Assembly (NCBI GenBank): GCA_934525675.1
Contig: CAKSZH010000001.1
Span: forward strand, 138,405 to 202,404
Length of the DNA stretch: 64,000 bases
Direction of reading: 5' to 3'
Source: an uncultured Eubacteriales bacterium
GTDB taxonomy: Bacteria; Bacillota; Clostridia; Oscillospirales; CAG-272
Shown: positions 52,891 to 63,993 of the stretch, in pieces
How the letters are laid out: every line of letters begins with the position of its first letter
How positions within the stretch are numbered: the stretch's first letter is position 1
Notes under the pieces: model-generated
Databases searched by the model: none
What the model was told of the DNA's origin: nothing
What the model saw: the letters and a program-made list of their open reading frames with translations, nothing else
Program-made: the position numbers and the translations under genes

Positions 52891-55647
52891 ATGTCACTGA
52901 TCGACAAAATCATCGGTACTTACAGCGAACGTCAGATTAAAAAACTGAAAAAGACGGCGGACGCGGTGGACGCGCTGTCGGAAAAATATGCGGCAATGAG
53001 CGATGAGGAGCTGCGCGGCGTGACGGCGGAGTTCAAAAAACGTCTTTCGGACGGCGAAACGCTCAACGACCTCCTTCCCGACGCGTTCGCGGCAGTCCGG
53101 GAAGCGGACTGGCGGGTGCTTGGCAAACGTCCGTTCTATGTCCAGATTCTCGGCGGCATCATCCTTCACCAGGGACGCATTGCCGAAATGAAGACCGGTG
53201 AAGGCAAAACACTGGTCGCCACCATGCCCGCATACCTCAACGCACTGACGGGAGAGGGCGTTCACATCGTCACGGTCAATGACTACCTTGCCCGCCGCGA
53301 CAGCGAGGAGATGGGACGAGTTTACGCCTATCTCGGACTTTCGACGGGACTTGTCGTGCACGATATGTCGCCCGCGGACAAGCAGGCGGCATACGCGGCG
53401 GACATCACCTACGGAACCAACAACGAGTTCGGCTTTGATTACCTCCGCGACAATATGGTCGTCTACCGCGAGAATATGGTGCAGCGCGGTCACGCGTTTG
53501 CCATCGTGGACGAGGTGGACTCCATCCTCATCGACGAGGCGCGTACCCCGCTGATCATTTCCGGTGCGGGCGAGGAATCGAGCGATATGTACCGGAGAGC
53601 GGACGATTTCGTGCGCGGGCTCCGCAAGTTTGTCATCAAGGAGATTGATGCCAAGCAGGACAACGACCAGATCGACGCGGATTACATCATCGACGAAAAG
53701 GCGAAGAACGCGGTGCTGACCGCGTCGGGTGCAAAGAAAGCGGAAGCCTTCTTCGGTATCGAGAACTATTCCGATCCCGCAAACTCCGAGATCGCGCACT
53801 ACGTCACCCAGGCGATCAAGGCGCACGGCTGCATGAAGCGCGACGAGGATTACGTCGTCAATGAAAAGGGCGTCATGATCGTCGATTCCTTCACGGGACG
53901 TCTCATGCCCGGCAGACGGTATTCCGACGGTCTGCACCAGGCAATCGAAGCCAAGGAGGGCGTGGAGGTCCAGAAGGAGAACAAAACGCTCGCGACCATC
54001 ACCTTCCAGAACTATTTCCGTATGTATAAGAAGCTGTCCGGTATGACCGGTACCGCGCTCACAGAGGAAATGGAATTCCGCGAAATTTACGGGCTGGACG
54101 TGGTGGAGGTTCCCACCAACAAGCCGATGATCCGGATCGACCATTCCGACGTGGTGTATCAGACCATGGAAGCAAAATACGCGGCGATTGTCGAGCAGGT
54201 CAGGGAATGTCACGAAAAGGGACAGCCGGTACTGGTCGGTACCATTGCAATCGACAAATCCGAGCAGCTTTCCGTCCGCCTGAAAAAAGCGGGAATCCCG
54301 CATACCGTACTCAACGCGAAGTATCATGAAAAAGAAGCGGAGATCGTCGCGCAGGCGGGTAAATTCGGTGCCGTCACCATTTCCACCAACATGGCAGGAC
54401 GTGGTACCGACATCATGCTCGGCGGCAACCCGGAATTTCTCGCAAAGACCGAAATGGCGAAAATGGAGATTCCGGAGGAGCTGATTGCGGCATCCACCGG
54501 AACCGCAGAGACCGACGACGAAGCGGTCCTGAATGCCCGCAGGACCTTCCGCGAGCTGTACGACAGATACCGCGCAGAGATCGCGCCGGAGGCGGAGAAG
54601 GTCAGAGCGGCGGGAGGACTCTTTATCCTCGGCACCGAACGCCACGAGAGCCGACGCATTGACAATCAGCTCCGCGGACGCGCCGGACGTCAGGGCGACC
54701 CCGGCGAATCGAGATTCTTCCTTTCCCTTGAGGATGACCTCATGCGCCTGTTCGGAAGCGACCGCCTCACCGGTATGATCGCGGCGCTCAAGCTGCCGGC
54801 GGACGTGCCGATCGACGCGCGCATCCTCTCCAACCAGATCGAAAGTGCACAGAAGCGCCTGGAAGACAACAACTTCAAGCGCAGAAAATACGTCCTGTCC
54901 TATGACGACGTGATGAATCAGCAGAGAAACGTCATTTACGGGCAGAGAAAAGAAGTGCTGGACGGCTCCGATCCCTCGGCGGATATTCTCAAAATGGTAC
55001 ACTCCTCCATCGGGGAAGCGGTTGCCGCAAATACGGCGGATGAGGTTCCGGACAACTGGAATTTCGACGCGCTCCGTTCCCGTTACCTCGGTGTGCTGAC
55101 GACCGAAGAGGATTTCAGATACGAAACGCGCGAACTGGAAAAGCTCTCCCGTGAAGATCTCACGGATCTGCTCACGGAGCGTGCCGAGAAACTGCTTGCC
55201 GATAAGGCGGCGCTGTTCGGCGAGGAGACCTTCAAGGAGATCGAGCGTGCGATCCTGCTCCGCACCGTTGACCGCGCGTGGATGGAACACATCGACGCAA
55301 TGGAAGACCTCAAGGGCAGCATCGGGCTTCAGTCCTATGCGCAGAGAGATCCCGTCACCGAGTACCGCATTCAGGGTGCGGATATGTTCGATTCCATGGT
55401 CGAGGACATCCGTGAGACGACCGTCCGGGGCGTTCTGACCGTCGTTCCGAGAGAAAAACCCGTGACCCGTGTGCAGGTGGCAAAGCCGCTTGGCGAAGGC
55501 TTTGAGGACGGCAAAATGAAGCCGAGGAAGGTCACCATCACGACCGTCCGCAAGCCGGCAACGGTCGGACGCAATGATCCTTGTCCCTGCGGCTCCGGTA
55601 AGAAGTACAAGAACTGCTGCATGAGAGCGGATCAGCAGGGAAAGTGA
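52891..55647 (+). CDS. secA: preprotein translocase ATPase SecA
   Basis: ATG 52891 with [48 protein letters not shown] and C-terminal Zn motif [13 protein letters not shown]. Confidence 0.97.
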
Positions 55648-55648
55648 T

Positions 55649-56326
55649 ATGGGATTCGGTCTCTTGTTTTTCGGCGTTCTCATCGCCGAGGTGCCGTTTC
55701 TCGGCGCATGGTTTCCCACCTGCTTTCTCGGGTATCTTCTGATCCTTGCGGCGGTGGGAAAACTGCGGATGTACGAGAGCACGTACCATTTCGCCTTCAT
55801 CCCGCTTATCCCCCTGATCCTGTTTTCGGGGTTTCAGATCGGCGCGGCGATCTTCGGCGTGACAAAGCTTGGTGTCATCTATCCCGGCGGCACGGCGGGA
55901 ACGGTTCTGAACGCCGCATTTCAGGTCTTCCGGATGTTGCTCCGTGAGACGCTGTTCTTCGGAACGGCAGAGCTTGCCGCATCCGTGAAATTGCCGAAGC
56001 TCCGCCTCCGCGCGGTACAGAATATGGTTGCCTACGGAATCTGGTTTTTGTTTGCCGTGCTCCAATTGACCGGAATCTTCAAAGGCGTTCCCGGTTTTGA
56101 TGCCGCGCTCATGATTGTGTATCTGCTTGTGACCGTATTTGCGCTCGTGCTGTACGCTTCCTCGTATCGCCGGATCTGCCCGGAGGGGGAAGAGGATGCC
56201 CCGCGCCGTAAATCGCGCTTTGCTTTTGTCAACCGCTTTTATGAAAAGCTCGACAAAAAAGAGGAGCAGGCGGCAAAGGAATCCGCAAAACTTTACCTCG
56301 AACATAAAAAAGGAAAGAAAAAATAA
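55649..56326 (+). CDS. polytopic membrane protein, unknown function
   Basis: The ATG lies 1 nt after the secA stop. About 6 TM helices and a Lys-rich C-terminal tail. The N-terminal FLGYLLILAAVGKL resembles the next protein. Confidence 0.7.
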   Translation: MGFGLLFFGVLIAEVPFLGAWFPTCFLGYLLILAAVGKLRMYESTYHFAFIPLIPLILFSGFQIGAAIFGVTKLGVIYPGGTAGTVLNAAFQVFRMLLRETLFFGTAELAASVKLPKLRLRAVQNMVAYGIWFLFAVLQLTGIFKGVPGFDAALMIVYLLVTVFALVLYASSYRRICPEGEEDAPRRKSRFAFVNRFYEKLDKKEEQAAKESAKLYLEHKKGKKK

Positions 56327-56512: not shown

Positions 56513-57925
56513 ATGCAGAAAATCAAAAAGAATCTCGGAATCGGGCAGATCCTTCTCTCCGCCGTGTTTCTGTTCAATCCGGAGGTCAGCGTCATTGACC
56601 CGCTCCCCGATTTCATCGGTTATCTGCTTCTCGTAACGGGGCTGACCTGTCTTGCCGATCTCAATGAAACGCTTGCCACGGCGCGGAAACTGTTTCTCAT
56701 ACTCGCATGGGTTTCCGGCGCACAGCTTCTGTCGGTTCTGTTTCTGTTCGGCGCCGGCGCGTCGGCAGACCGGGCAATGAATTTTCTTCTGTTCCCGTTC
56801 TGCTTCGGCATTCTGTCAACCCTGCTTGCAATCCCGGCGTTCAAATTCCTGTTTGACGGTCTTTTGTATCTCGGCACCCGCCATAACGGAACGGCGGTTT
56901 TCCGGGGCGCCGGGAAAAAGGAGCCGGTTCCGGGGCAGTTCGCCGCAGTCGATCACCTGCGTTTTCTTACATACGTATTCCTGATCTTCAAAACGGTGAT
57001 GACGGTCCTGCCGGAGTTTGCTGTACTGTCCGCGTACGGACAGGATCTGAATGCGGTCAACTGGTCGCGGTTTCTTCCCCTGTTCCGTATGGGTGCGATC
57101 ATCGTTGTCCTTCCGTTCGGGATCGTCTGGCTCTGCCGGTATATCGGATTTTTCCGTGCGGTCAGGAACGACGGGGAGTTTATCGGAACCCTGACGGAAA
57201 AATATCGCACCGAGGTTTTGACGAAGGAATCCGTGTTTGTTCTCCGGACGGTCTTCCGCGCATTTCTTCTGCTCGGCGCCGCGGCGGTATTCAGCATGGA
57301 CTTTTATCTGAACCGGTATAATGTCCTGCCGGATTTCATTGCGGGAATCTGCATTTTTCTCGCAGTCCTGTTTTTGCGGAAATATCTCAAAAAACCGAAT
57401 TTCCTGCTTGCAGGCAGTGCCGTGTACACGGTTGTGGCCGCCGCGGAATGGATTCTTTATACCCTCTTTGTCCGCTCCAGCCGGTACCGGGACATTTACG
57501 TGGATATCCGCCTGATGGCGCCCGACGCAGTGTCGGGACATTACCTGACATCCGTCGTTTACGGCGTATCCGAAGTGCTGTTTCTCTGTCTCTTTGTGCT
57601 TCTTGTCATACAGCTTCTCGGTTTTGTCCGGAATTATACCTGCTTCCCGGTCAATCCGTCGCTTCACGATTCCGAAGCGCGGCTCCGCCTGGAGCAGAAG
57701 CCGCTTCGCGTCGGACTGTATATCGCGGTGCTGCTTGCGGCGGTTTGCGCGGGGCTTGCGGTCTGCCTCAGAATTTTCATTCCGTATGCGACGGTCAAAC
57801 GTTTTTCTTTCAGTGAACTTCTGACGCTCCTCTCCGCGATCGCGTCGATTGCGTGGGCAGCGGAATTCTGCGTGACGCTTGCGGCAATCCGTGCGCAGGT
57901 GAAAAATAAATACTGGCTGGACTGA
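56513..57925 (+). CDS. polytopic membrane protein with internally duplicated LPDFI(G/A) module, unknown function
   Basis: ATG 56513 with RBS AAAGGAG. IDPLPDFIGYLLLVTGL at the N-terminus and YNVLPDFIAGICIFLAVL mid-protein. Confidence 0.7.
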   Translation: MQKIKKNLGIGQILLSAVFLFNPEVSVIDPLPDFIGYLLLVTGLTCLADLNETLATARKLFLILAWVSGAQLLSVLFLFGAGASADRAMNFLLFPFCFGILSTLLAIPAFKFLFDGLLYLGTRHNGTAVFRGAGKKEPVPGQFAAVDHLRFLTYVFLIFKTVMTVLPEFAVLSAYGQDLNAVNWSRFLPLFRMGAIIVVLPFGIVWLCRYIGFFRAVRNDGEFIGTLTEKYRTEVLTKESVFVLRTVFRAFLLLGAAAVFSMDFYLNRYNVLPDFIAGICIFLAVLFLRKYLKKPNFLLAGSAVYTVVAAAEWILYTLFVRSSRYRDIYVDIRLMAPDAVSGHYLTSVVYGVSEVLFLCLFVLLVIQLLGFVRNYTCFPVNPSLHDSEARLRLEQKPLRVGLYIAVLLAAVCAGLAVCLRIFIPYATVKRFSFSELLTLLSAIASIAWAAEFCVTLAAIRAQVKNKYWLD

Positions 57926-58009
57926 CCGGATTCTGTTCCGCTCCTGAATAGACAGGCGGCGCACGGTGCATACTTATGCTGAAATCCAAATCAGAAAGGA
58001 ATTCAGAAT

Positions 58010-58210
58010 ATGCAGAACAACAATCAGAACAACCAGAACCAGAATAACCAGAACCAGCAGAATTGCCGGAATCAACAGAACAACCAGAACCAGAATCAGA
58101 ACAATCAGAATCAGAACAATCAGAATCAGAACAATCAGAATCAGCAGAACCGCAACCGGCAGAATTTCCAGAATAACCAGAATCATCAGAACAACCAGAA
58201 CCAGGACTGA
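58010..58210 (+). CDS. 66-aa Asn/Gln-only peptide (33 N, 25 Q, 8 other residues)
   Basis: AGAAAGGAA RBS 9 nt before the ATG. 24 of 25 Gln codons are CAG, consistent with GC-rich third positions in this frame. TGA stop, with a terminator about 70 nt downstream. Coding status is unproven. Confidence 0.45.
   Translation: MQNNNQNNQNQNNQNQQNCRNQQNNQNQNQNNQNQNNQNQNNQNQQNRNRQNFQNNQNHQNNQNQD
58013..58207. repeat. CAGAAY hexanucleotide microsatellite including 3.6 copies of a 15-bp unit
   Basis: CAGAATCAGAACAAT repeats at 58091-58144. The whole stretch is built from CAG/AAC/AAT triplets and is clearly AT-richer than its flanks. Confidence 0.9.
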
Positions 58211-58282
58211 TTTTTACTCACCGGAGCGCCCGCAGAAGGGAACGCGGAAGGGATTGGTGCCACCGGCACGAAAAATTCCGGG

Positions 58283-58306
58283 AACGCCCCTCTGCGGGCG
58301 TTTTTT
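58283..58306 (+). terminator. intrinsic terminator after the N/Q ORF
   Basis: AACGCCC (58283-58289) pairs with GGGCGTT (58296-58302), followed by a T run. Confidence 0.65.
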
Positions 58307-58319
58307 CACAATTATTTCA

Positions 58320-58348
58320 TTGACATCAGCCCGCGCGTATGATAGGAT
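58320..58348 (+). promoter_or_regulatory. putative promoter of the ABC-DUF1854-ABC operon
   Basis: TTGACA (58320-58325), 17-nt spacer ending in TGa, then TAGGAT (58343-58348). Confidence 0.5.
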
Positions 58349-58420
58349 AATACATATATTCAGCGTATTTTGAGGTACCCCGGTAAGCGGGATCCGTTTT
58401 TGTCCGCCGCGCGCGGAGAC

Positions 58421-60844
58421 ATGGTCCGTAAAAACGGACGGAGGACTGCTTTGGCAACAGAATTTGATGTGATTCCGGAGAGAATCTGGCAGGAACTGAA
58501 ACGTCGGGGGATTGCCCGCGGGTCGGTTCTTTTTGCCATGTATGCCGACCGGAACGAAAAGGAGGAGCGGGCGGAGAACTATCTCTTTCTGACGGACGAT
58601 CGGATCGCCGTTCTGACCCTCCCGTACAGCGGCGGGGACGGACAATCACGCCGCCGGAAAACGAGGAAAACGTCCGCCTCGGCTCGCCCGGATATGGGCG
58701 ACAACGCAAACGGAACGGAGTCGCCTGCTGCCCGGACCGCGCACAATGATTCTTCTACAGCCTCGGAAACAGACGGTTCCGCGCCGTCCCCGGCGACCCT
58801 GACCGAATACCCGAGGGAGGGACTGGCCCGTCTTTCTGTGGAAGAGCGGACGTCCACCTCTCGCCTGGTCGCGCTGGCATCGGACGGTACCTGCATTCTG
58901 CTTGCGACCATGACCAATTTCTGCCGTACCTCCGCGCACCTGTTTGAGCGTTACGGCAACCGCGCACTCGCAGGGGAGAAGGACATTTCCGTGTCGCCGG
59001 ACGACCTGCCGGGTGCCAACTGCTGCCCCAAATGTGGACTGCGCTATCCAGACGCGGGACAGAAAATCTGCCCGCGGTGCATGGCAAAAACACACTCCAT
59101 CAACCGCATGAACTTCTTCCTTAAGAAGTATCGCATCCAGCTTGCCGTCGCGTTTCTGACGCTTTGCCTGTCGGTTGCGTTCAGTGTTCTGGGACCTTAT
59201 TTTTCTTCCGGCTTTTTCTATGACAAGGTGCTGACCCCGGACGGCGGGTTCTTCGGGCAGATCGGCTTGGTCCTCGGTCTCGTGATCGCCACCCGTGCGC
59301 TCATGTACGTGTCCATCATGTTCAATAACTACGTGACCTCCCGTATCACGGTCAAAATGGTCTACGACCTCCGGAAAACCATTTTCGGCGTGATCGAACG
59401 CCTGTCTTTGCGTTTCTTCACCGGACGGCATACGGGCGGGCTGATGAATCAGGTCAACGACGACGCCGACGCGATCTATGAGTATTACTGCAACAGCCTG
59501 CCGTATTTTCTGATGTGCCTGGTCCAGCTCGTGATCGTGGTGGTACTGCTTTTCGTGATCCAGCCCGTCATGGCGGCGTTTGCCTTTGCCATGATCCCGG
59601 TCTATGTGCTGCTGGTCATGTGGCAGCACCGGCGCAGCCGCCGGCTCCGCGCGGCACAGTATAACCGTTCTTCGGAAATGACCGCCCACCTGTCCGACGC
59701 CCTGACCGGTGCACGCGTAGTCAAAGCGTTTGCAAGAGAAGACCAGGAACTGGCGCGTTTCCGCCGCAACAACGAGCGCCTCGGCGAAAGCGAGCGCCGC
59801 CTCGGTATGTTTCACAGTTTCCTTACCCCTCTGACGGCGACCGTCCTGCTTGCCGGCAATATCGTGACGCTCGGTTACGGCGGGTACCTGGTCATCCGGG
59901 GGAGACTGACCTATGGACAGCTTCTGACGTTTATTTCTTACGTGAACATTGCGTTTACTCCGCTCAGCTTTTTCGTCAGTTTCTTTCAGTGGCGGGCATA
60001 TTATGCCAACGCCGCCGCGAGACTGTTCGAGATCATGGATGCGCATCCGGAGATCACCGAGAAGCCTGACGCCATGCATCCGGATATCCGCGGAGCGGTG
60101 GAATTCTCCCACGTGGATTTTTCTTATGATAAAAACCGCCGTGTTGTGGAGGACGTTTCCTTTTCGGTCCCCGCCGGGGAAACGCTCGGCATTGTCGGGC
60201 ACAGCGGCGCGGGGAAGAGTACCATTGCCAACCTGCTCATGCGCCTGTATGAGACCGACCGCGGAGAGATCCGGATCGACGGCATCAATGTCCGCGATCT
60301 TGCGTTTGACCGCCTGTACGGCAGTATCGCCATTGTGTCGCAGGAAACCTACATATTTGTCGGGAGCGTGCTGGACAATATCCGTTATGCGCGTCCCGAA
60401 GCTACCAATGAAGAGGTCATCGCCGCGGCGCGGATCGCCGGCGCACATGATTTCATCATGCGGATGCCGGACGGCTACGAGACCCGTATCGGACTTGGCA
60501 AAAAGGAGTTGTCCGGCGGGGAAAAACAGCGGATTTCCATTGCCCGCGCAATCCTGCGGAACCCGAAGATTCTGATTCTGGACGAGGCGACCGCCGCGAT
60601 GGATACCGAAACCGAGCGCATGATCCAGAGCGCCCTCTCCCGTCTGACCGAGGGTAAAACGACCATCATCATCGCGCACCGCCTGTCCACGCTCCGCGAC
60701 GCGGATCAGTTGATTGTCATTGAATCCGGCAGGGTGGTGGAACGCGGAACGCACGCGACACTGCTCGCAAAAGGGGGCGGCACCTACCATAAGCTCTACA
60801 CGCTTCAGGAAGAAGCGCTCCGCAGTGCGGGGATCGCGGAATAA
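58421..60844 (+). CDS. ABC exporter half-transporter (TMD+NBD) with ~235-aa N-terminal cytoplasmic extension (PH-like fold? plus zinc ribbon)
   Basis: Zn ribbon CCPKCGLRYPDAGQKICPRC just before TM1. Six-TM exporter domain. GHSGAGKST, LSGGEKQR, ILILDEATAAMD and IIAHRLST motifs. Start is uncertain: ATG 58421 is preferred over the TTG at 58370. Confidence 0.85.
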   Translation: MVRKNGRRTALATEFDVIPERIWQELKRRGIARGSVLFAMYADRNEKEERAENYLFLTDDRIAVLTLPYSGGDGQSRRRKTRKTSASARPDMGDNANGTESPAARTAHNDSSTASETDGSAPSPATLTEYPREGLARLSVEERTSTSRLVALASDGTCILLATMTNFCRTSAHLFERYGNRALAGEKDISVSPDDLPGANCCPKCGLRYPDAGQKICPRCMAKTHSINRMNFFLKKYRIQLAVAFLTLCLSVAFSVLGPYFSSGFFYDKVLTPDGGFFGQIGLVLGLVIATRALMYVSIMFNNYVTSRITVKMVYDLRKTIFGVIERLSLRFFTGRHTGGLMNQVNDDADAIYEYYCNSLPYFLMCLVQLVIVVVLLFVIQPVMAAFAFAMIPVYVLLVMWQHRRSRRLRAAQYNRSSEMTAHLSDALTGARVVKAFAREDQELARFRRNNERLGESERRLGMFHSFLTPLTATVLLAGNIVTLGYGGYLVIRGRLTYGQLLTFISYVNIAFTPLSFFVSFFQWRAYYANAAARLFEIMDAHPEITEKPDAMHPDIRGAVEFSHVDFSYDKNRRVVEDVSFSVPAGETLGIVGHSGAGKSTIANLLMRLYETDRGEIRIDGINVRDLAFDRLYGSIAIVSQETYIFVGSVLDNIRYARPEATNEEVIAAARIAGAHDFIMRMPDGYETRIGLGKKELSGGEKQRISIARAILRNPKILILDEATAAMDTETERMIQSALSRLTEGKTTIIIAHRLSTLRDADQLIVIESGRVVERGTHATLLAKGGGTYHKLYTLQEEALRSAGIAE

Positions 60845-60856
60845 GGAGGGATCGAC

Positions 60857-61405
60857 ATGAACGAAATGAAGAACAACCAAAGCGTCGTGCCGGAAAACGG
60901 GATGCAGTCCTTCCGGGAGGTGGCAACGGAAAAGTATCTTTGCCCGGGGGAGGTCACCTTCCGGGAAAAGGACGGTTTTCTGACCATTGAGGCGGACGGG
61001 AAAACGTATCCGCGGGTGCTTCTGCGCCGGGCGTTTCCGTTTGAACTCCCGGACGAATATATCACGGTGACGGATGGGGAAGGACACGAGATCGGCATGA
61101 TCCGTTCTCTCTCCGACCTTGACGCGGAAACGGGGAAACTGCTCCGGGAAGAGCTTGCCCGCGCGTATTACATGCCGGAGGTGACGAAGATCCTTTCCAT
61201 GAAGGAACGCTTCGGCTTTTCCTACTGGCGGGTCGAAACCGGGGACGGAGAGACGGAATTCACTCTTCAGGATACCTATCGCAGTATTCAGCATGTTACC
61301 CCGACCCACCTGATCTTTCTGGATGTCAGCGGAAACCGGTTTGAGATCCCGGATACCGAGAAACTCGACCGGGGAAGTCACCGGAAAATCGAACTGTACC
61401 TGTAA
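60857..61405 (+). CDS. DUF1854 family protein
   Basis: RBS AAGGAGG. FREKDGFLTIEADGKTYPRVLLRRAFPF...ITVTDGEGHEIGMI...YYMPEVTKILSMKERFGFSYWRVETGDGE...DVSGNRFEIPD matches my memory of DUF1854, which occurs beside or fused to ABC transporters. Confidence 0.8.
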   Translation: MNEMKNNQSVVPENGMQSFREVATEKYLCPGEVTFREKDGFLTIEADGKTYPRVLLRRAFPFELPDEYITVTDGEGHEIGMIRSLSDLDAETGKLLREELARAYYMPEVTKILSMKERFGFSYWRVETGDGETEFTLQDTYRSIQHVTPTHLIFLDVSGNRFEIPDTEKLDRGSHRKIELYL

Positions 61406-61492
61406 TTCCGCGGGGAAGACAACCGGAACCCGTGACTGCGTTGGTTCCGGTTCCTTCCGGAAGACTGTTTTTATGATGATCGGAGGTCAGCT

Positions 61493-63787
61493 TTGAAACG
61501 ACCGAATGAACCGTCCGCCGTGCGGACGCTGAATGAAAAATACCGGGAGCGGTACCGGGACCTGTTTCGTGCGGACCCGCCGGAAGAGGTACTGCTCCTT
61601 GTTGCCTTTAACCTGGACCGCAAAATTCCGGGGAAACGGGTGGACGGCTTGTGCGTATTCACCGCCGGCGACTGCCACGTTTATACCGACGGAGTTCTGA
61701 CCGATACATTCCGGATGGAGTGCGGCGGCAGATGCCGCATGGTTGCCGAGATCGGAAGCGTGTTCGCGGAATATCTGTCCCCCGACGGAACGCCGCACCT
61801 GATCCTGCGCGCGGATAACCGCATGAGGCGGGAGATCGGCGCGGGAATGAAATTCGTGGATCGGGCGGTTGAGTTCGGAGAGAAACTTTCTCCCTTTGAC
61901 GCGCCGCGCGTCACGGAAGAGGTCTGCCCCAAGTGCCAAAGTCCGTACCCACCCGGCTCCCATGTCTGTCCCGCCTGTACGGGAAAGGGAAAGACGCTGA
62001 AGCGCCTGCTCGGAATGGCGGGAAAGTCGCGCGGCTATATCGTTGCGGCAATCGCTTTCTTCTTTCTGATCTCGGCGGTCAGCCTGCTTGCGCCGTATCT
62101 CAACCGCCGGCTCATCGACGGGTATGTGCAGGCACCGGCGGGCACGGTACAGGACCGCGTGTTCTGGATCGGGTTTGCAACCGTCATTGTCACGCTTGCC
62201 CTGGTACAGATTTTTCAAAAGTTCTGCACCATGCTCCGCGGGTTCTTCCTGGTGCGCGCGGGCAACGGTGTGATTATGTCCTTGCGCGAAAAAGTGTTCG
62301 GGCAGATCGAGCGGATGTCGGTCTCCCGCATTTCAAAACGCACCTCGGGGGAACTGCTGAACCGCGTCAAGAGCGACACGGCGCAGATCCAGGATTTTCT
62401 GACGGGACAGCTTCCGAATGTGCTGGAGCAGGTGTTTCTGTTCCTTGCCGTGGTCGTCATCCTGCTTGTGACCGACCCGCGACTGACGCTTCTGGTACTT
62501 CTCCCTGCCGTGGTTGTCATGTTTTCTTTCCGCCTGTTCTGGCGGTTCATGTCGGGGCTGTTCCGGAAATCCTGGTCGCTTTACTCCCGGATGTCCACGG
62601 TTCTGCACGATATTTTTTCGGGTATCCGCGTGGTCAAGGCGTTCGGTATGGAGAAAAAGGAGTCAGAGCGGTACGATCGGGCAAGCCGCGATGTCTCCGC
62701 GAACGATTACCGCATCGAGCGATTCTGGGCGTTTTTCAACCCGCTTCTGAACTTCCTGATGGGTGCGGGAGAATTCATTCTGCTTTATTACGTCGGCAAC
62801 CGGATTCTCGCGGGAAGCATGACCATCGGTGAGATGTCCCAGTTTTCCGCTTATGTTGCCCTCATCTACGGCCCGCTCAACCAGTTTGCCAATCTCCCGC
62901 GCCAGATCATGCGGGTGACCACATCGGTCAATAAAGTCTTTGAGATTGTGGACGAACAGCCGGAACTGACCGACGCGGAGCATCCGAAGGACGTGAAACT
63001 GGATGGACACATCGACATTGAGAACGTTTCCTTCGGATACGACGAGGGCGGCGAGGTGCTCCGGAATATTTCCTTACATATCGAACCCGGAGAATTCATC
63101 GGCATTGTGGGACGTTCCGGCGTGGGAAAGTCCACGCTCATCAACCTCATCATGCGGATGTATGACCCGGAATCCGGCAGGATCCTCGCGTCCGGTACGG
63201 ACCTGCGGGAAATCTCCCAGCATTCGCTCCGTTCGCAGATCGGCGTGGTGCTTCAGGAAACTTTTCTGTTCTCCGGCACGGTTTATGAAAACATTGCCTA
63301 CGCAAAGCCCGACGCGACCCCCGATGAGATCATTGCCGCCGCGCGGCTTGCGGGTGCGCACGACTTCATCATGAAGCTGTCGGACGGCTATGACACCAAG
63401 ATCGGCGAGCACGGCTATACGCTCTCCGGTGGCGAGCGCCAGCGGGTGGCGATCACAAGGGCGTTGCTCCGTGACCCCAAGATTCTGATTCTTGACGAGG
63501 CGACCGCGTCTCTGGATACGGAAACCGAAAAGCAGATTCAGGAGGCGCTTCACCGGCTTTCCGAGAGCCGGACCACCATCGCCATTGCACACCGCTTATC
63601 CACGCTTCGCGGCGCAACCCGGCTGATTGTGCTGGACGGCGGCAGGATTGCGGAGACCGGAACGCATGACGAACTGATCGAAAAGCACGGGATTTATTAC
63701 GGGCTGGTCATGGCGCAAAGGGAAATGTCGCGTATGGCAAAACCCGAGGCGGGACTCCCCGGCCCGGCAACCGCCGCTGCGGAGTAA
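61493..63787 (+). CDS. ABC exporter half-transporter (TMD+NBD) with ~175-aa N-terminal extension and zinc ribbon
   Basis: TTG start with GGAGG 6 nt upstream. CPKCQSPYPPGSHVCPAC before TM1. GRSGVGKST, LSGGERQR, ILILDEATASLD and AIAHRLST motifs. Confidence 0.88.
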   Translation: MKRPNEPSAVRTLNEKYRERYRDLFRADPPEEVLLLVAFNLDRKIPGKRVDGLCVFTAGDCHVYTDGVLTDTFRMECGGRCRMVAEIGSVFAEYLSPDGTPHLILRADNRMRREIGAGMKFVDRAVEFGEKLSPFDAPRVTEEVCPKCQSPYPPGSHVCPACTGKGKTLKRLLGMAGKSRGYIVAAIAFFFLISAVSLLAPYLNRRLIDGYVQAPAGTVQDRVFWIGFATVIVTLALVQIFQKFCTMLRGFFLVRAGNGVIMSLREKVFGQIERMSVSRISKRTSGELLNRVKSDTAQIQDFLTGQLPNVLEQVFLFLAVVVILLVTDPRLTLLVLLPAVVVMFSFRLFWRFMSGLFRKSWSLYSRMSTVLHDIFSGIRVVKAFGMEKKESERYDRASRDVSANDYRIERFWAFFNPLLNFLMGAGEFILLYYVGNRILAGSMTIGEMSQFSAYVALIYGPLNQFANLPRQIMRVTTSVNKVFEIVDEQPELTDAEHPKDVKLDGHIDIENVSFGYDEGGEVLRNISLHIEPGEFIGIVGRSGVGKSTLINLIMRMYDPESGRILASGTDLREISQHSLRSQIGVVLQETFLFSGTVYENIAYAKPDATPDEIIAAARLAGAHDFIMKLSDGYDTKIGEHGYTLSGGERQRVAITRALLRDPKILILDEATASLDTETEKQIQEALHRLSESRTTIAIAHRLSTLRGATRLIVLDGGRIAETGTHDELIEKHGIYYGLVMAQREMSRMAKPEAGLPGPATAAAE

Positions 63788-63944: not shown

Positions 63945-63993
63945 GCCCCACCTCCTGTCGCGCAAGCGCGACGGGAGGTGGGGCACTTTTGTT
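63945..63993. terminator. strong hairpin terminator about 160 nt after the ABC operon
   Basis: 19-bp stem: GCCCCACCTCCTGTCGCGC pairs with GCGCGACGGGAGGTGGGGC (one G-U), followed by ACTTTTGTT. T-rich on the minus strand too. Confidence 0.8.

Follow-up and report, generated by a model that had tools for sequence, protein, structure and literature searches.

The locus examined here raises the question of what is moved by a pair of ATP-binding cassette (ABC) half-transporters that flank a DUF1854 protein and that each carry a long N-terminal extension ending in a zinc ribbon. It lies in a 64,000-nt stretch of contig CAKSZH010000001.1 from an uncultured Eubacteriales bacterium, hereafter the window, in which the cassette ABC1-DUF1854-ABC2 is encoded entirely on the + strand. 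Our analysis indicates that the cassette is very probably a distinct subfamily of a broader kind of DUF1854-coupled ABC exporter. The zinc-ribbon extensions are not new: they occur family-wide, and an NCBIfam model already covers them. The locus is most informative in its asparagine- and glutamine-rich (N/Q) peptide, which an earlier note made from the sequence alone mentioned in passing, and in the conservation of that peptide, its position in the operon and the inheritance of its gene in one block with the cassette.

A cassette of the DUF1854-coupled transporter family

ABC1 and ABC2 were extracted from a sample of 80 GTDB species loci with flanks of up to ±10 kb, all from uncultured gut or rumen Clostridia (Oscillospiraceae, Acutalibacteraceae, and 'Ruminococcus'); L001 is the locus of the window's own species and L007 that of its closest relative. 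DUF1854 was flanked by both half-transporter genes in 80/80 loci wherever the contig permits, and the survey of DUF1854 neighborhoods across Clostridia that the earlier note proposed as a check returned a conserved ABC1-DUF1854-ABC2 order. GTDB contains 248 species with the cassette. In the window it comprises the following features:

58451-60844, + strand: ABC1, a 797-aa half-transporter, its start assigned from the ribosome-binding site (RBS) and orthologues
Parts of ABC1: predicted PH-like domain 58451 to ~59020; Cys4 ribbon 59024-59080; transmembrane domain (TMD) 59144-59965; nucleotide-binding domain (NBD) 60149-60595
~58625-58798, + strand: low-complexity loop of ABC1, species-specific, inside the PH-like domain
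60857-61405, + strand: DUF1854 protein, 182 aa, soluble, no signal peptide, two tandem beta-rich subdomains
61493-63787, + strand: ABC2, a 764-aa half-transporter; RBS GGAGG, 6 nt, then TTG
Parts of ABC2: predicted PH-like domain ~61520-61876; Cys4 ribbon 61925-61978; TMD 62042-62878; NBD 63059-63508

Pfam searches identified ABC_membrane and ABC_tran in both large proteins (E 1e-40/1e-31 and 3e-45/7e-37), with the PF00664 TMD preceding the PF00005 NBD in ABC1 and ABC2, as in type-IV (MsbA/Sav1866-like) exporter half-transporters. Both NBDs have canonical Walker A, Q-loop, LSGGE, ILILDE, and IAHR motifs, retained in 71/71 ABC1 and 68/68 ABC2 orthologues examined, in agreement with the earlier description of two MsbA-type half-transporters. 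ABC1 and ABC2 are distinct paralogues, with 39% identity in the core and different ribbon spacing (N11 and N10), and the ATP sites of both are consensus. The earlier proposal of a heterodimeric exporter with a soluble partner stood as regards the two-gene arrangement and the soluble DUF1854 protein; on this arrangement the two half-transporters may pair with each other. PADLOC returned only generic ABC-ATPase matches on the locus, so the cassette is not a known defense system.

The three genes are intact in the window, where the listed open reading frames (ORFs) are 58370-60844, 60857-61405, and 61493-63787. The start of ABC1 is most likely TTG at 58451, with GGAGGA 5 nt upstream; the ABC1 orthologues begin exactly at the matching position, and gene callers on identical metagenome contigs gave ABC1 as 796-797 aa. 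Its N-terminal extension is thus ~227 aa; the long extensions noted before (~235 and ~175 aa) were recovered, with this correction to the first. The GGAGG RBS of the DUF1854 gene overlaps the ABC1 stop codon. A TTG start is apparent for both ABC genes (58451 and 61493), and the N/Q and DUF1854 genes begin with ATG; subunit stoichiometry may be tuned in this way. Three antisense ORFs of 911, 382, and 968 aa (58646-61381, 56816-57964, and 52894-55800, all on the - strand) were rejected as genes, being artefacts of GC-rich coding sequence that overlap real genes.

The middle protein matched PF08909 (DUF1854) at 134.9 bits against a cut-off of 26.8, residues 51-179 covering profile positions 1-128 of 130, which settles its earlier assignment. 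The best NCBIfam match of both ABC proteins was NF052233 (CphA_assoc_ABC), a 766-position equivalog model with a cut-off of 880 bits, at 482.7 bits for ABC1 and 523.9 bits for ABC2, both under the cut-off. The DUF1854 protein likewise had NF052234 (CphA_assoc_prot) as its best match, at 96.8 bits, under the cut-off of 150 bits. The cyanophycin-associated label that the earlier note mentioned thus exists. The NF052233 model spans the N-domain as well as the core, with ABC1 residues 147-816 aligning to profile positions 72-746, and the window locus has the architecture of that family: an N-domain of ~170 aa with a Cys4 ribbon, a TMD, an NBD, and a DUF1854 neighbor.

These matches bear on whether the cassette is simply a routine efflux pair of the multidrug or lipid (MsbA-like) type, its extra domains being decoration. 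On the core, generic models for MsbA, multidrug transporters, and HlyB did reach E 1e-80 to 1e-130, but ranked below NF052233, a DUF1854-linked family model that includes the N-domain, and the DUF1854 partner and the N-domains are kept in all 80 species under purifying selection. Such an explanation is poorly supported, and we regard it as very improbable.

A tblastn search of plasmids with the DUF1854 protein led to a locus on the Ralstonia wenshanensis megaplasmid p56D2, in which cphA and cphA' are divergent from an ABC-DUF1854 pair. The Ralstonia ABC protein scored 1460 bits on NF052233 and its DUF1854 partner 234 bits on NF052234. Its N-terminus has the same PH-like and ribbon layout (CPTC-N10-CPQC), and was matched by the ABC2 N-terminal profile (ABC2_N; hhalign probability 95%, E 4e-8) and weakly by that of ABC1 (ABC1_N). 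Since this N-terminus is shared, the PH-like and ribbon module marks the whole DUF1854-coupled ABC family, and the earlier idea that the extension is special to this cassette has to be given up. The two systems have in common the PH-like domain, the CxxC-N10-CxxC ribbon, six transmembrane (TM) segments, the NBD, and a DUF1854 gene adjacent downstream. They differ in that Ralstonia has a single ABC gene, whose product forms a homodimer, whereas two paralogous ABC genes flank DUF1854 here, and in that cphA and cphA' adjoin the Ralstonia pair, whereas the ribosomal N/Q peptide gene and the gene for an orphan membrane protein (mem470) stand here in place of the synthetases. With both Ralstonia CphA proteins as queries, tblastn found nothing in the 64-kb window, as the earlier note had stated, or in the 80 loci with their flanks of up to ±10 kb. 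A single ABC gene with DUF1854 was also present on plasmid 1 of Gemmatirosa kalamazoonensis (locus L093, 4154-10489), with an S9-family peptidase gene directly upstream and no cphA within 10 kb; outside Clostridia, too, the ABC-DUF1854 pair can therefore occur apart from a nearby cphA.

In Acidovorax and Cupriavidus, DUF1854 genes show cofitness with cphA, cphA', and the ABC gene, and a polymer built of amino acids was proposed to be effluxed (Price et al., bioRxiv 10.1101/072470). This preprint was the single relevant item that literature searches on DUF1854, PF08909, and Asn-rich small proteins returned. A 2023 paper on cyanophycin states that no process for exporting the polymer is known (PMC9974463).

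The N-terminal extensions

The ribbons read CPKC-N11-CPRC in ABC1 and CPKC-N10-CPAC in ABC2, with TM1 following each after ~17 residues, which bears out the CxxC-N(10-12)-CxxC ribbon previously placed before TM1. The ribbon was retained in at least 69/71 ABC1 and in 66/76 ABC2 orthologues, a conservation that argues against a chance match. About ten species in which all four ABC2 ribbon cysteines were lost also had a shorter N-domain there and kept the ABC1 ribbon (loci listed with ABC2 ribbon loss: L015, L025, L028, L044, L051, L062, L069, and L078). Given these ABC2-only losses, one ribbon per dimer may suffice.

Orthologue alignments revealed a conserved beta-rich domain followed by the ribbon and a basic pre-TM helix. 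ABC1_N and ABC2_N are homologous to each other (hhalign probability 99.9%, E 5e-31), and a relationship of the N-domains to DUF1854 was ruled out (hhalign probability <1%). At the sequence level the N-termini had few relatives elsewhere: Pfam gave only weak zinc-ribbon matches, with no bPH/GRAM match in the ABC1 or ABC2 N-terminus and no match to the C39 peptidase (PF03412) in either, and a word-indexed protein search with ABC2 residues 1-180 yielded zero matches. When 1.84 billion representative proteins were scanned by HMMER with ABC2 residues 1-178, only 34 matches emerged, all from the cassette's own family or fragments of it, and the ABC2_N domain is therefore narrow at the sequence level. 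Profile searches of the PDB with ABC2_N, ABC1_N, DUF1854, and mem470 returned generic zinc-ribbon matches or none.

An AlphaFold2 model of ABC2_N, built from an alignment of search hits, had a mean confidence (pLDDT) of 91.9 and consisted of a helix, seven strands, a long helix (109-128), the ribbon, and the pre-TM helix. When compared with the PDB using Foldseek, its top 50 matches were nearly all PH, FERM-F3, and PTB domains (kindlin-3, GRK2, SKAP, Sin1), with probabilities of 0.9-0.99, but with E values of at least 0.01 (~1e-2) and TM scores of 0.3-0.5. The predicted structure thus supports, at the level of fold, an ABC2 extension composed of a PH-like domain (a seven-stranded beta-sandwich with a C-terminal helix) and a zinc ribbon, in line with the earlier impression of a PH/GRAM-like segment. 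The low-complexity insert previously seen in the first extension (~58625-58798) lies in a loop that varies across all relatives and is ~35 residues longer in the window. The model of the DUF1854 protein had a pLDDT of 86.9; a known fold for this protein was tried and rejected, the best Foldseek hits, HIN-200 and Rtt106, being unconvincing at TM scores of ~0.2-0.26. The outcomes that the earlier note had named as grounds for abandoning its description were thus not observed: the middle protein is DUF1854, the neighborhood is conserved, and the N-terminal regions had no sequence match to a well-characterized domain of known function.

A type-IV core with a cytoplasmic N-domain before TM1 is also found in peptidase-containing (C39) PCAT/bacteriocin exporters and in HlyB-type (C39-like) type I secretion systems, as is a small peptide gene that heads the operon and is followed by a hairpin. 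The cassette differs from these in having a PH-like domain and ribbon, not C39, in the absence of a double-glycine leader, and in its extra soluble DUF1854 subunit; moreover, in contrast to HlyB-type systems, its host is Gram-positive and there are no membrane-fusion or outer-membrane protein partners. In Wzt, a carbohydrate-binding accessory domain selects O-antigen, a lipid-linked glycan, for an ABC exporter. The concept of a cytoplasmic accessory module that picks a long, repetitive, hydrophilic polymer is common to both, but Wzt-type transporters are type V and the cassette type IV, and the accessory folds differ.

The sequence is compatible with either direction of transport, and IrtAB is an exporter-fold importer with an N-terminal cytoplasmic domain, cytoplasmic accessory domains being known on such importers. 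The cassette could accordingly be an exporter-fold importer or a non-transport mechanotransducer, in which the PH-like domains and DUF1854 process or sense the substrate after uptake. However, cofitness ties the beta-proteobacterial relatives to polymer synthetases of the cytoplasm, and the block encodes no extracellular binding protein or lipoprotein; we consider this alternative improbable.

The asparagine/glutamine peptide gene

Directly upstream of ABC1, the window contains a small gene and a structured intergenic region, and a second hairpin follows the cassette:

58010-58210, + strand: N/Q gene, encoding a 66-aa peptide with ~84% Asn+Gln and an MQNN start; RBS aaagga; candidate cargo or regulatory leader
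58223-58306, + strand: long hairpin followed by a U-run, 3' of the N/Q gene; terminator- or attenuator-like
58320-58348, + strand: sigma-70-like promoter, TTGACA-17-TAGGAT with extended TG; 10/12 matches, a match to consensus only
58351-58355, + strand: TACAT motif, directly after the -10-like box of the promoter-like site
63945-63984, + strand: strong intrinsic-terminator-like hairpin with an 18-bp stem, closing the operon

The peptide of the window begins MQNNNQNNQNQ, and equivalent ORFs of 44-75 aa were present in 30/80 species loci in addition to the window, always on the same strand and directly upstream of ABC1, with a gap of 18-250 nt (mostly 41-150 nt). Across the 30 species the peptides consisted of 51% N, 29% Q, and 9% K+R, with a conserved MQN start and a basic residue at or near the C-terminus; the ORFs start with ATG, preceded at 8-11 nt by a strong, conserved AAAGGAG RBS. 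Gene callers predict the ORF of the window. Codon choice varied between species (CAG:CAA from 19:0 to 3:11, and likewise AAC:AAT) and composition remained constant, which points to selection on the peptide in the N/Q frame. Strains of the window's species had 56-, 61-, and 66-aa versions, differing by in-frame 5-aa units. The +2 frame over the repeat is also open in 29/31 species (in the window 57966-58373, + strand, a 135-aa 'RTTIRT...' product), so openness alone cannot pinpoint the gene; among the open frames, the conserved RBS, ATG, and composition are confined to the N/Q frame.

In a reverse test, metagenome contigs were scanned for an RBS followed by ATG CAR AAY AAY AAY CAR AAY. Two of the five matches were true N/Q peptides, and both (2/2) stood upstream of an ABC1-DUF1854-ABC2 cassette. 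When the 30 aligned N/Q peptides served as query in the word-indexed protein search, none of 8000 candidates was significant, presumably owing to composition correction.

The hairpin of the window has a predicted folding energy of -51 kcal/mol (z -4.4), and 0/200 shuffled sequences were equally stable. In nearly all species a hairpin begins 4-13 nt past the N/Q stop codon; in most, the gap to ABC1 is 41-150 nt and contains a short C-rich/G-rich hairpin, no U-run, and then TACAT. The window and L007 have a gap of 240-250 nt, and only in these two does a U-run follow the hairpin. TACAT was invariant after the hairpin in 28/28 aligned intergenic regions (L009-L081), and in the window and L007 it lies just past the -10-like box of the ABC1 promoter-like site. 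A related palindrome, AAACATATGTTT, was observed after the -10 box of clade-B loci; TACAT and the palindrome may serve as a common operator or processing site. The N/Q-less species L008, L012, L014, L023, and L027 have a conserved promoter GATTGACAA-N17-GGTATAAT and the palindrome AAACATATGTTT ~400 nt upstream of ABC1, as well as a conserved small hydrophobic ORF (MK.ASFVISV...) on the opposite strand. Sequestration of the ABC1 RBS by the hairpin, of the SecM/MifM type, was ruled out, as the GGAGG that serves ABC1 is a separate one, 20-30 nt further downstream.

This arrangement invites the main competing explanation, in which the cassette exports some other substrate (a non-ribosomal polymer, an envelope precursor, or a peptide encoded elsewhere) and the N/Q ORF is a cis-regulatory leader that senses the supply of Asn and Gln (nitrogen) and, through the hairpin, adjusts ABC gene transcription or stability. 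The two amino acids that make up almost the whole ORF are central to nitrogen status, and the length of the ORF varies freely by in-frame repeat units. The hairpin is close enough to the stop codon for a terminating ribosome to reach it, the U-run in the window and L007 is intrinsic-terminator-like, and half of the species have a cassette without an adjacent N/Q gene. The his, trp, and thr leaders of ribosome-mediated attenuation similarly have a small upstream ORF, in which one or two amino acids are overrepresented, and a hairpin after it. However, at 44-75 codons the N/Q ORF is much longer than classical leader peptides (3-5 times longer than the his, trp, and thr leaders), and the genes downstream encode transporters, not enzymes of Asn or Gln biosynthesis. 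A U-run is missing from most of the hairpins, no antiterminator (alternative pairing) was identified, and the ABC1 RBS is not sequestered by the hairpin. A pure codon-sensor would not require the conserved MQN and C-terminal basic residue, and Rfam searches of the locus and six clade-B loci found nothing relevant. On balance we regard a leader function as unlikely, while giving it real weight.

Inheritance as a block and the candidate cargo

The N/Q gene and the cassette belong to a block that begins with one further gene:

56513-57925, + strand: mem470, an orphan polytopic membrane protein with ~10-12 hydrophobic segments, at the head of the divergent block of five genes

Comparison of L001 with L007 showed 95-96% DNA identity in the flanks and 77-81% in the stretch from mem470 to ABC2, with sharp edges lying just before mem470 and just past the ABC2 stop codon (window ~56.33/56.49 kb to 63.79/63.99 kb). 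Synonymous divergence (dS) was 0.67-1.31 in the block (mem470 0.69) and 0.12-0.19 in SecA, mem225, and the downstream MacB-like gene, that is, 4-7 times higher in the block than in its flanks. The ratio of nonsynonymous to synonymous divergence (dN/dS) was 0.07-0.21 throughout. Positive selection as the cause of the divergence was ruled out because dS is raised as well and dN/dS does not exceed 0.21; the five genes of the block are under purifying selection. A divergent block with such edges indicates that mem470, the N/Q gene, ABC1, DUF1854, and ABC2 were exchanged, or kept as old alleles, as one unit. Within it, the transporter cores evolve more slowly than the N-domains, DUF1854, and mem470. 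The pair L028/L051 showed a similar but weaker block pattern, and L041/L060 showed none.

We found mem470 orthologues upstream of the cassette in 32 loci. Among the 64 loci with enough upstream sequence, the N/Q gene was present in 29/32 with mem470 and in 0/32 without it. The protein had no match in Pfam, NCBIfam, PADLOC, or the PDB, and Pfam searches of 25 orthologues gave only scattered sub-threshold DUF matches. The clade with the N/Q gene and mem470 also retains SpoU, SecA, and mem225 upstream. Both mem225 (55649-56326) and mem470 lie downstream of SecA and are polytopic; mem225 had no Pfam, NCBIfam, or PDB match, and the two share an N-terminal motif of the 'P(D)xxIGYLLL..GL' type, without significant similarity to each other. 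Just past the 3' end of the window (L001 13151-20040) and convergent with the cassette lie a gene for a 1094-aa fused ABC_tran+FtsX (MacB-like) protein and two more ABC half-transporter genes (582 and 579 aa); the MacB-like gene occurs at the same position in 16 species and lies outside the divergent block.

The adjacency of the N/Q gene and mem470 might reflect inherited synteny with no functional coupling, the N/Q product being an independent nitrogen-rich storage, spore, or surface peptide and the substrate of the cassette unrelated to it. The N/Q gene is confined to the clade that keeps SpoU-SecA-mem225-mem470, a long block with housekeeping genes, and the cassette is complete in the other clade, where the N/Q gene is missing. 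Nevertheless, the block that diverges between L001 and L007 excludes SecA and mem225, which argues for a unit, and the same-strand gaps of 41-150 nt between the N/Q gene and ABC1 fit co-transcription. We think coincidental adjacency distinctly unlikely.

The reading that we favor, tentatively, is a heterodimeric exporter with the N/Q peptide as its cargo. ABC1 and ABC2 would pair into a type-IV (MsbA-like) exporter in which both ATP sites are competent and each subunit carries a cytoplasmic PH-like domain and Cys4 ribbon ahead of the elbow helix and TM1, and the soluble DUF1854 protein would serve as a cytoplasmic accessory subunit. An unstructured, polyamide-like N/Q peptide would be produced in excess from the first cistron, with the downstream hairpin fixing the ratio of peptide to transporter. 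The PH-like and ribbon domains, DUF1854, or both would capture the peptide in the cytoplasm, and the dimer would then expel it; substrate capture by the extensions, by analogy with the peptidase domain of PCAT exporters, was a possibility raised in the earlier note. The membrane protein mem470 would be a partner outside the transport step, as receptor, anchor, or immunity protein. We infer the cargo from the logic of the operon (small first gene, hairpin, transporter), from block inheritance, and from the analogy with cyanophycin. Many peptide-export operons have a small first gene, a hairpin, and then the transporter; cyanophycin is poly-Asp with amide-substituted side chains, of which poly-Asn is the unsubstituted analogue. 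A broader version of this proposal, which we put forward more tentatively still, is that DUF1854-coupled ABC transporters are dedicated exporters of hydrophilic polyamide chains, and that in gut Oscillospirales the polymer is not the product of an enzyme akin to cyanophycin synthetase but a ribosomally encoded poly-Asn/Gln of 44-75 aa, recognized by the PH-like/ribbon domains and DUF1854; peptide, exporter, and mem470 would then be a co-evolving, allelically exchanged secretion module.

Several observations weigh against the N/Q peptide as cargo of such an exporter. The N/Q peptides contain almost no Gly and no double-glycine leader or other known export signal, and are in this respect unlike known ABC-exported peptides. 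The cassette occurs with neither an adjacent N/Q gene nor mem470 in 32/64 species, and can therefore work without an adjacent N/Q gene; where present, the N/Q gene is tied to mem470 and the SecA synteny block as strictly as to the cassette, so inherited gene order may account for part of the linkage. The N/Q gene and ABC1 are separated in the window by a hairpin resembling a terminator and by a promoter-like site, and a small ORF rich in one or two amino acids with a hairpin also resembles a regulatory leader. Because both NBDs are canonical, homodimers would be compatible with the sequence as well. The scores lie far under the NF052233 and NF052234 cut-offs; function may have diverged from that of the cphA-linked members, and the function of those members is likewise only inferred.

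Judged by the searchable literature, what is new here is the cphA-free and putatively heterodimeric Clostridial architecture, its coupling to a ribosomal Asn/Gln peptide gene, and the presence of mem470 in the same allelically exchanged block. The DUF1854/ABC pair has been catalogued in Pfam and NCBIfam and never characterized, the sole functional hint being cofitness with cphA and cphA' in two beta-proteobacteria. The Clostridial variant supplies a genetically encoded, chemically simple candidate substrate, and its compact, synthesizable five-gene module would make the substrate of the family and the roles of the PH-like domain, the ribbon, and DUF1854 experimentally approachable. Nearly pure Asn/Gln peptides, whether secreted or regulatory, would moreover be an unusual class in abundant uncultured Clostridia of the human and ruminant gut.

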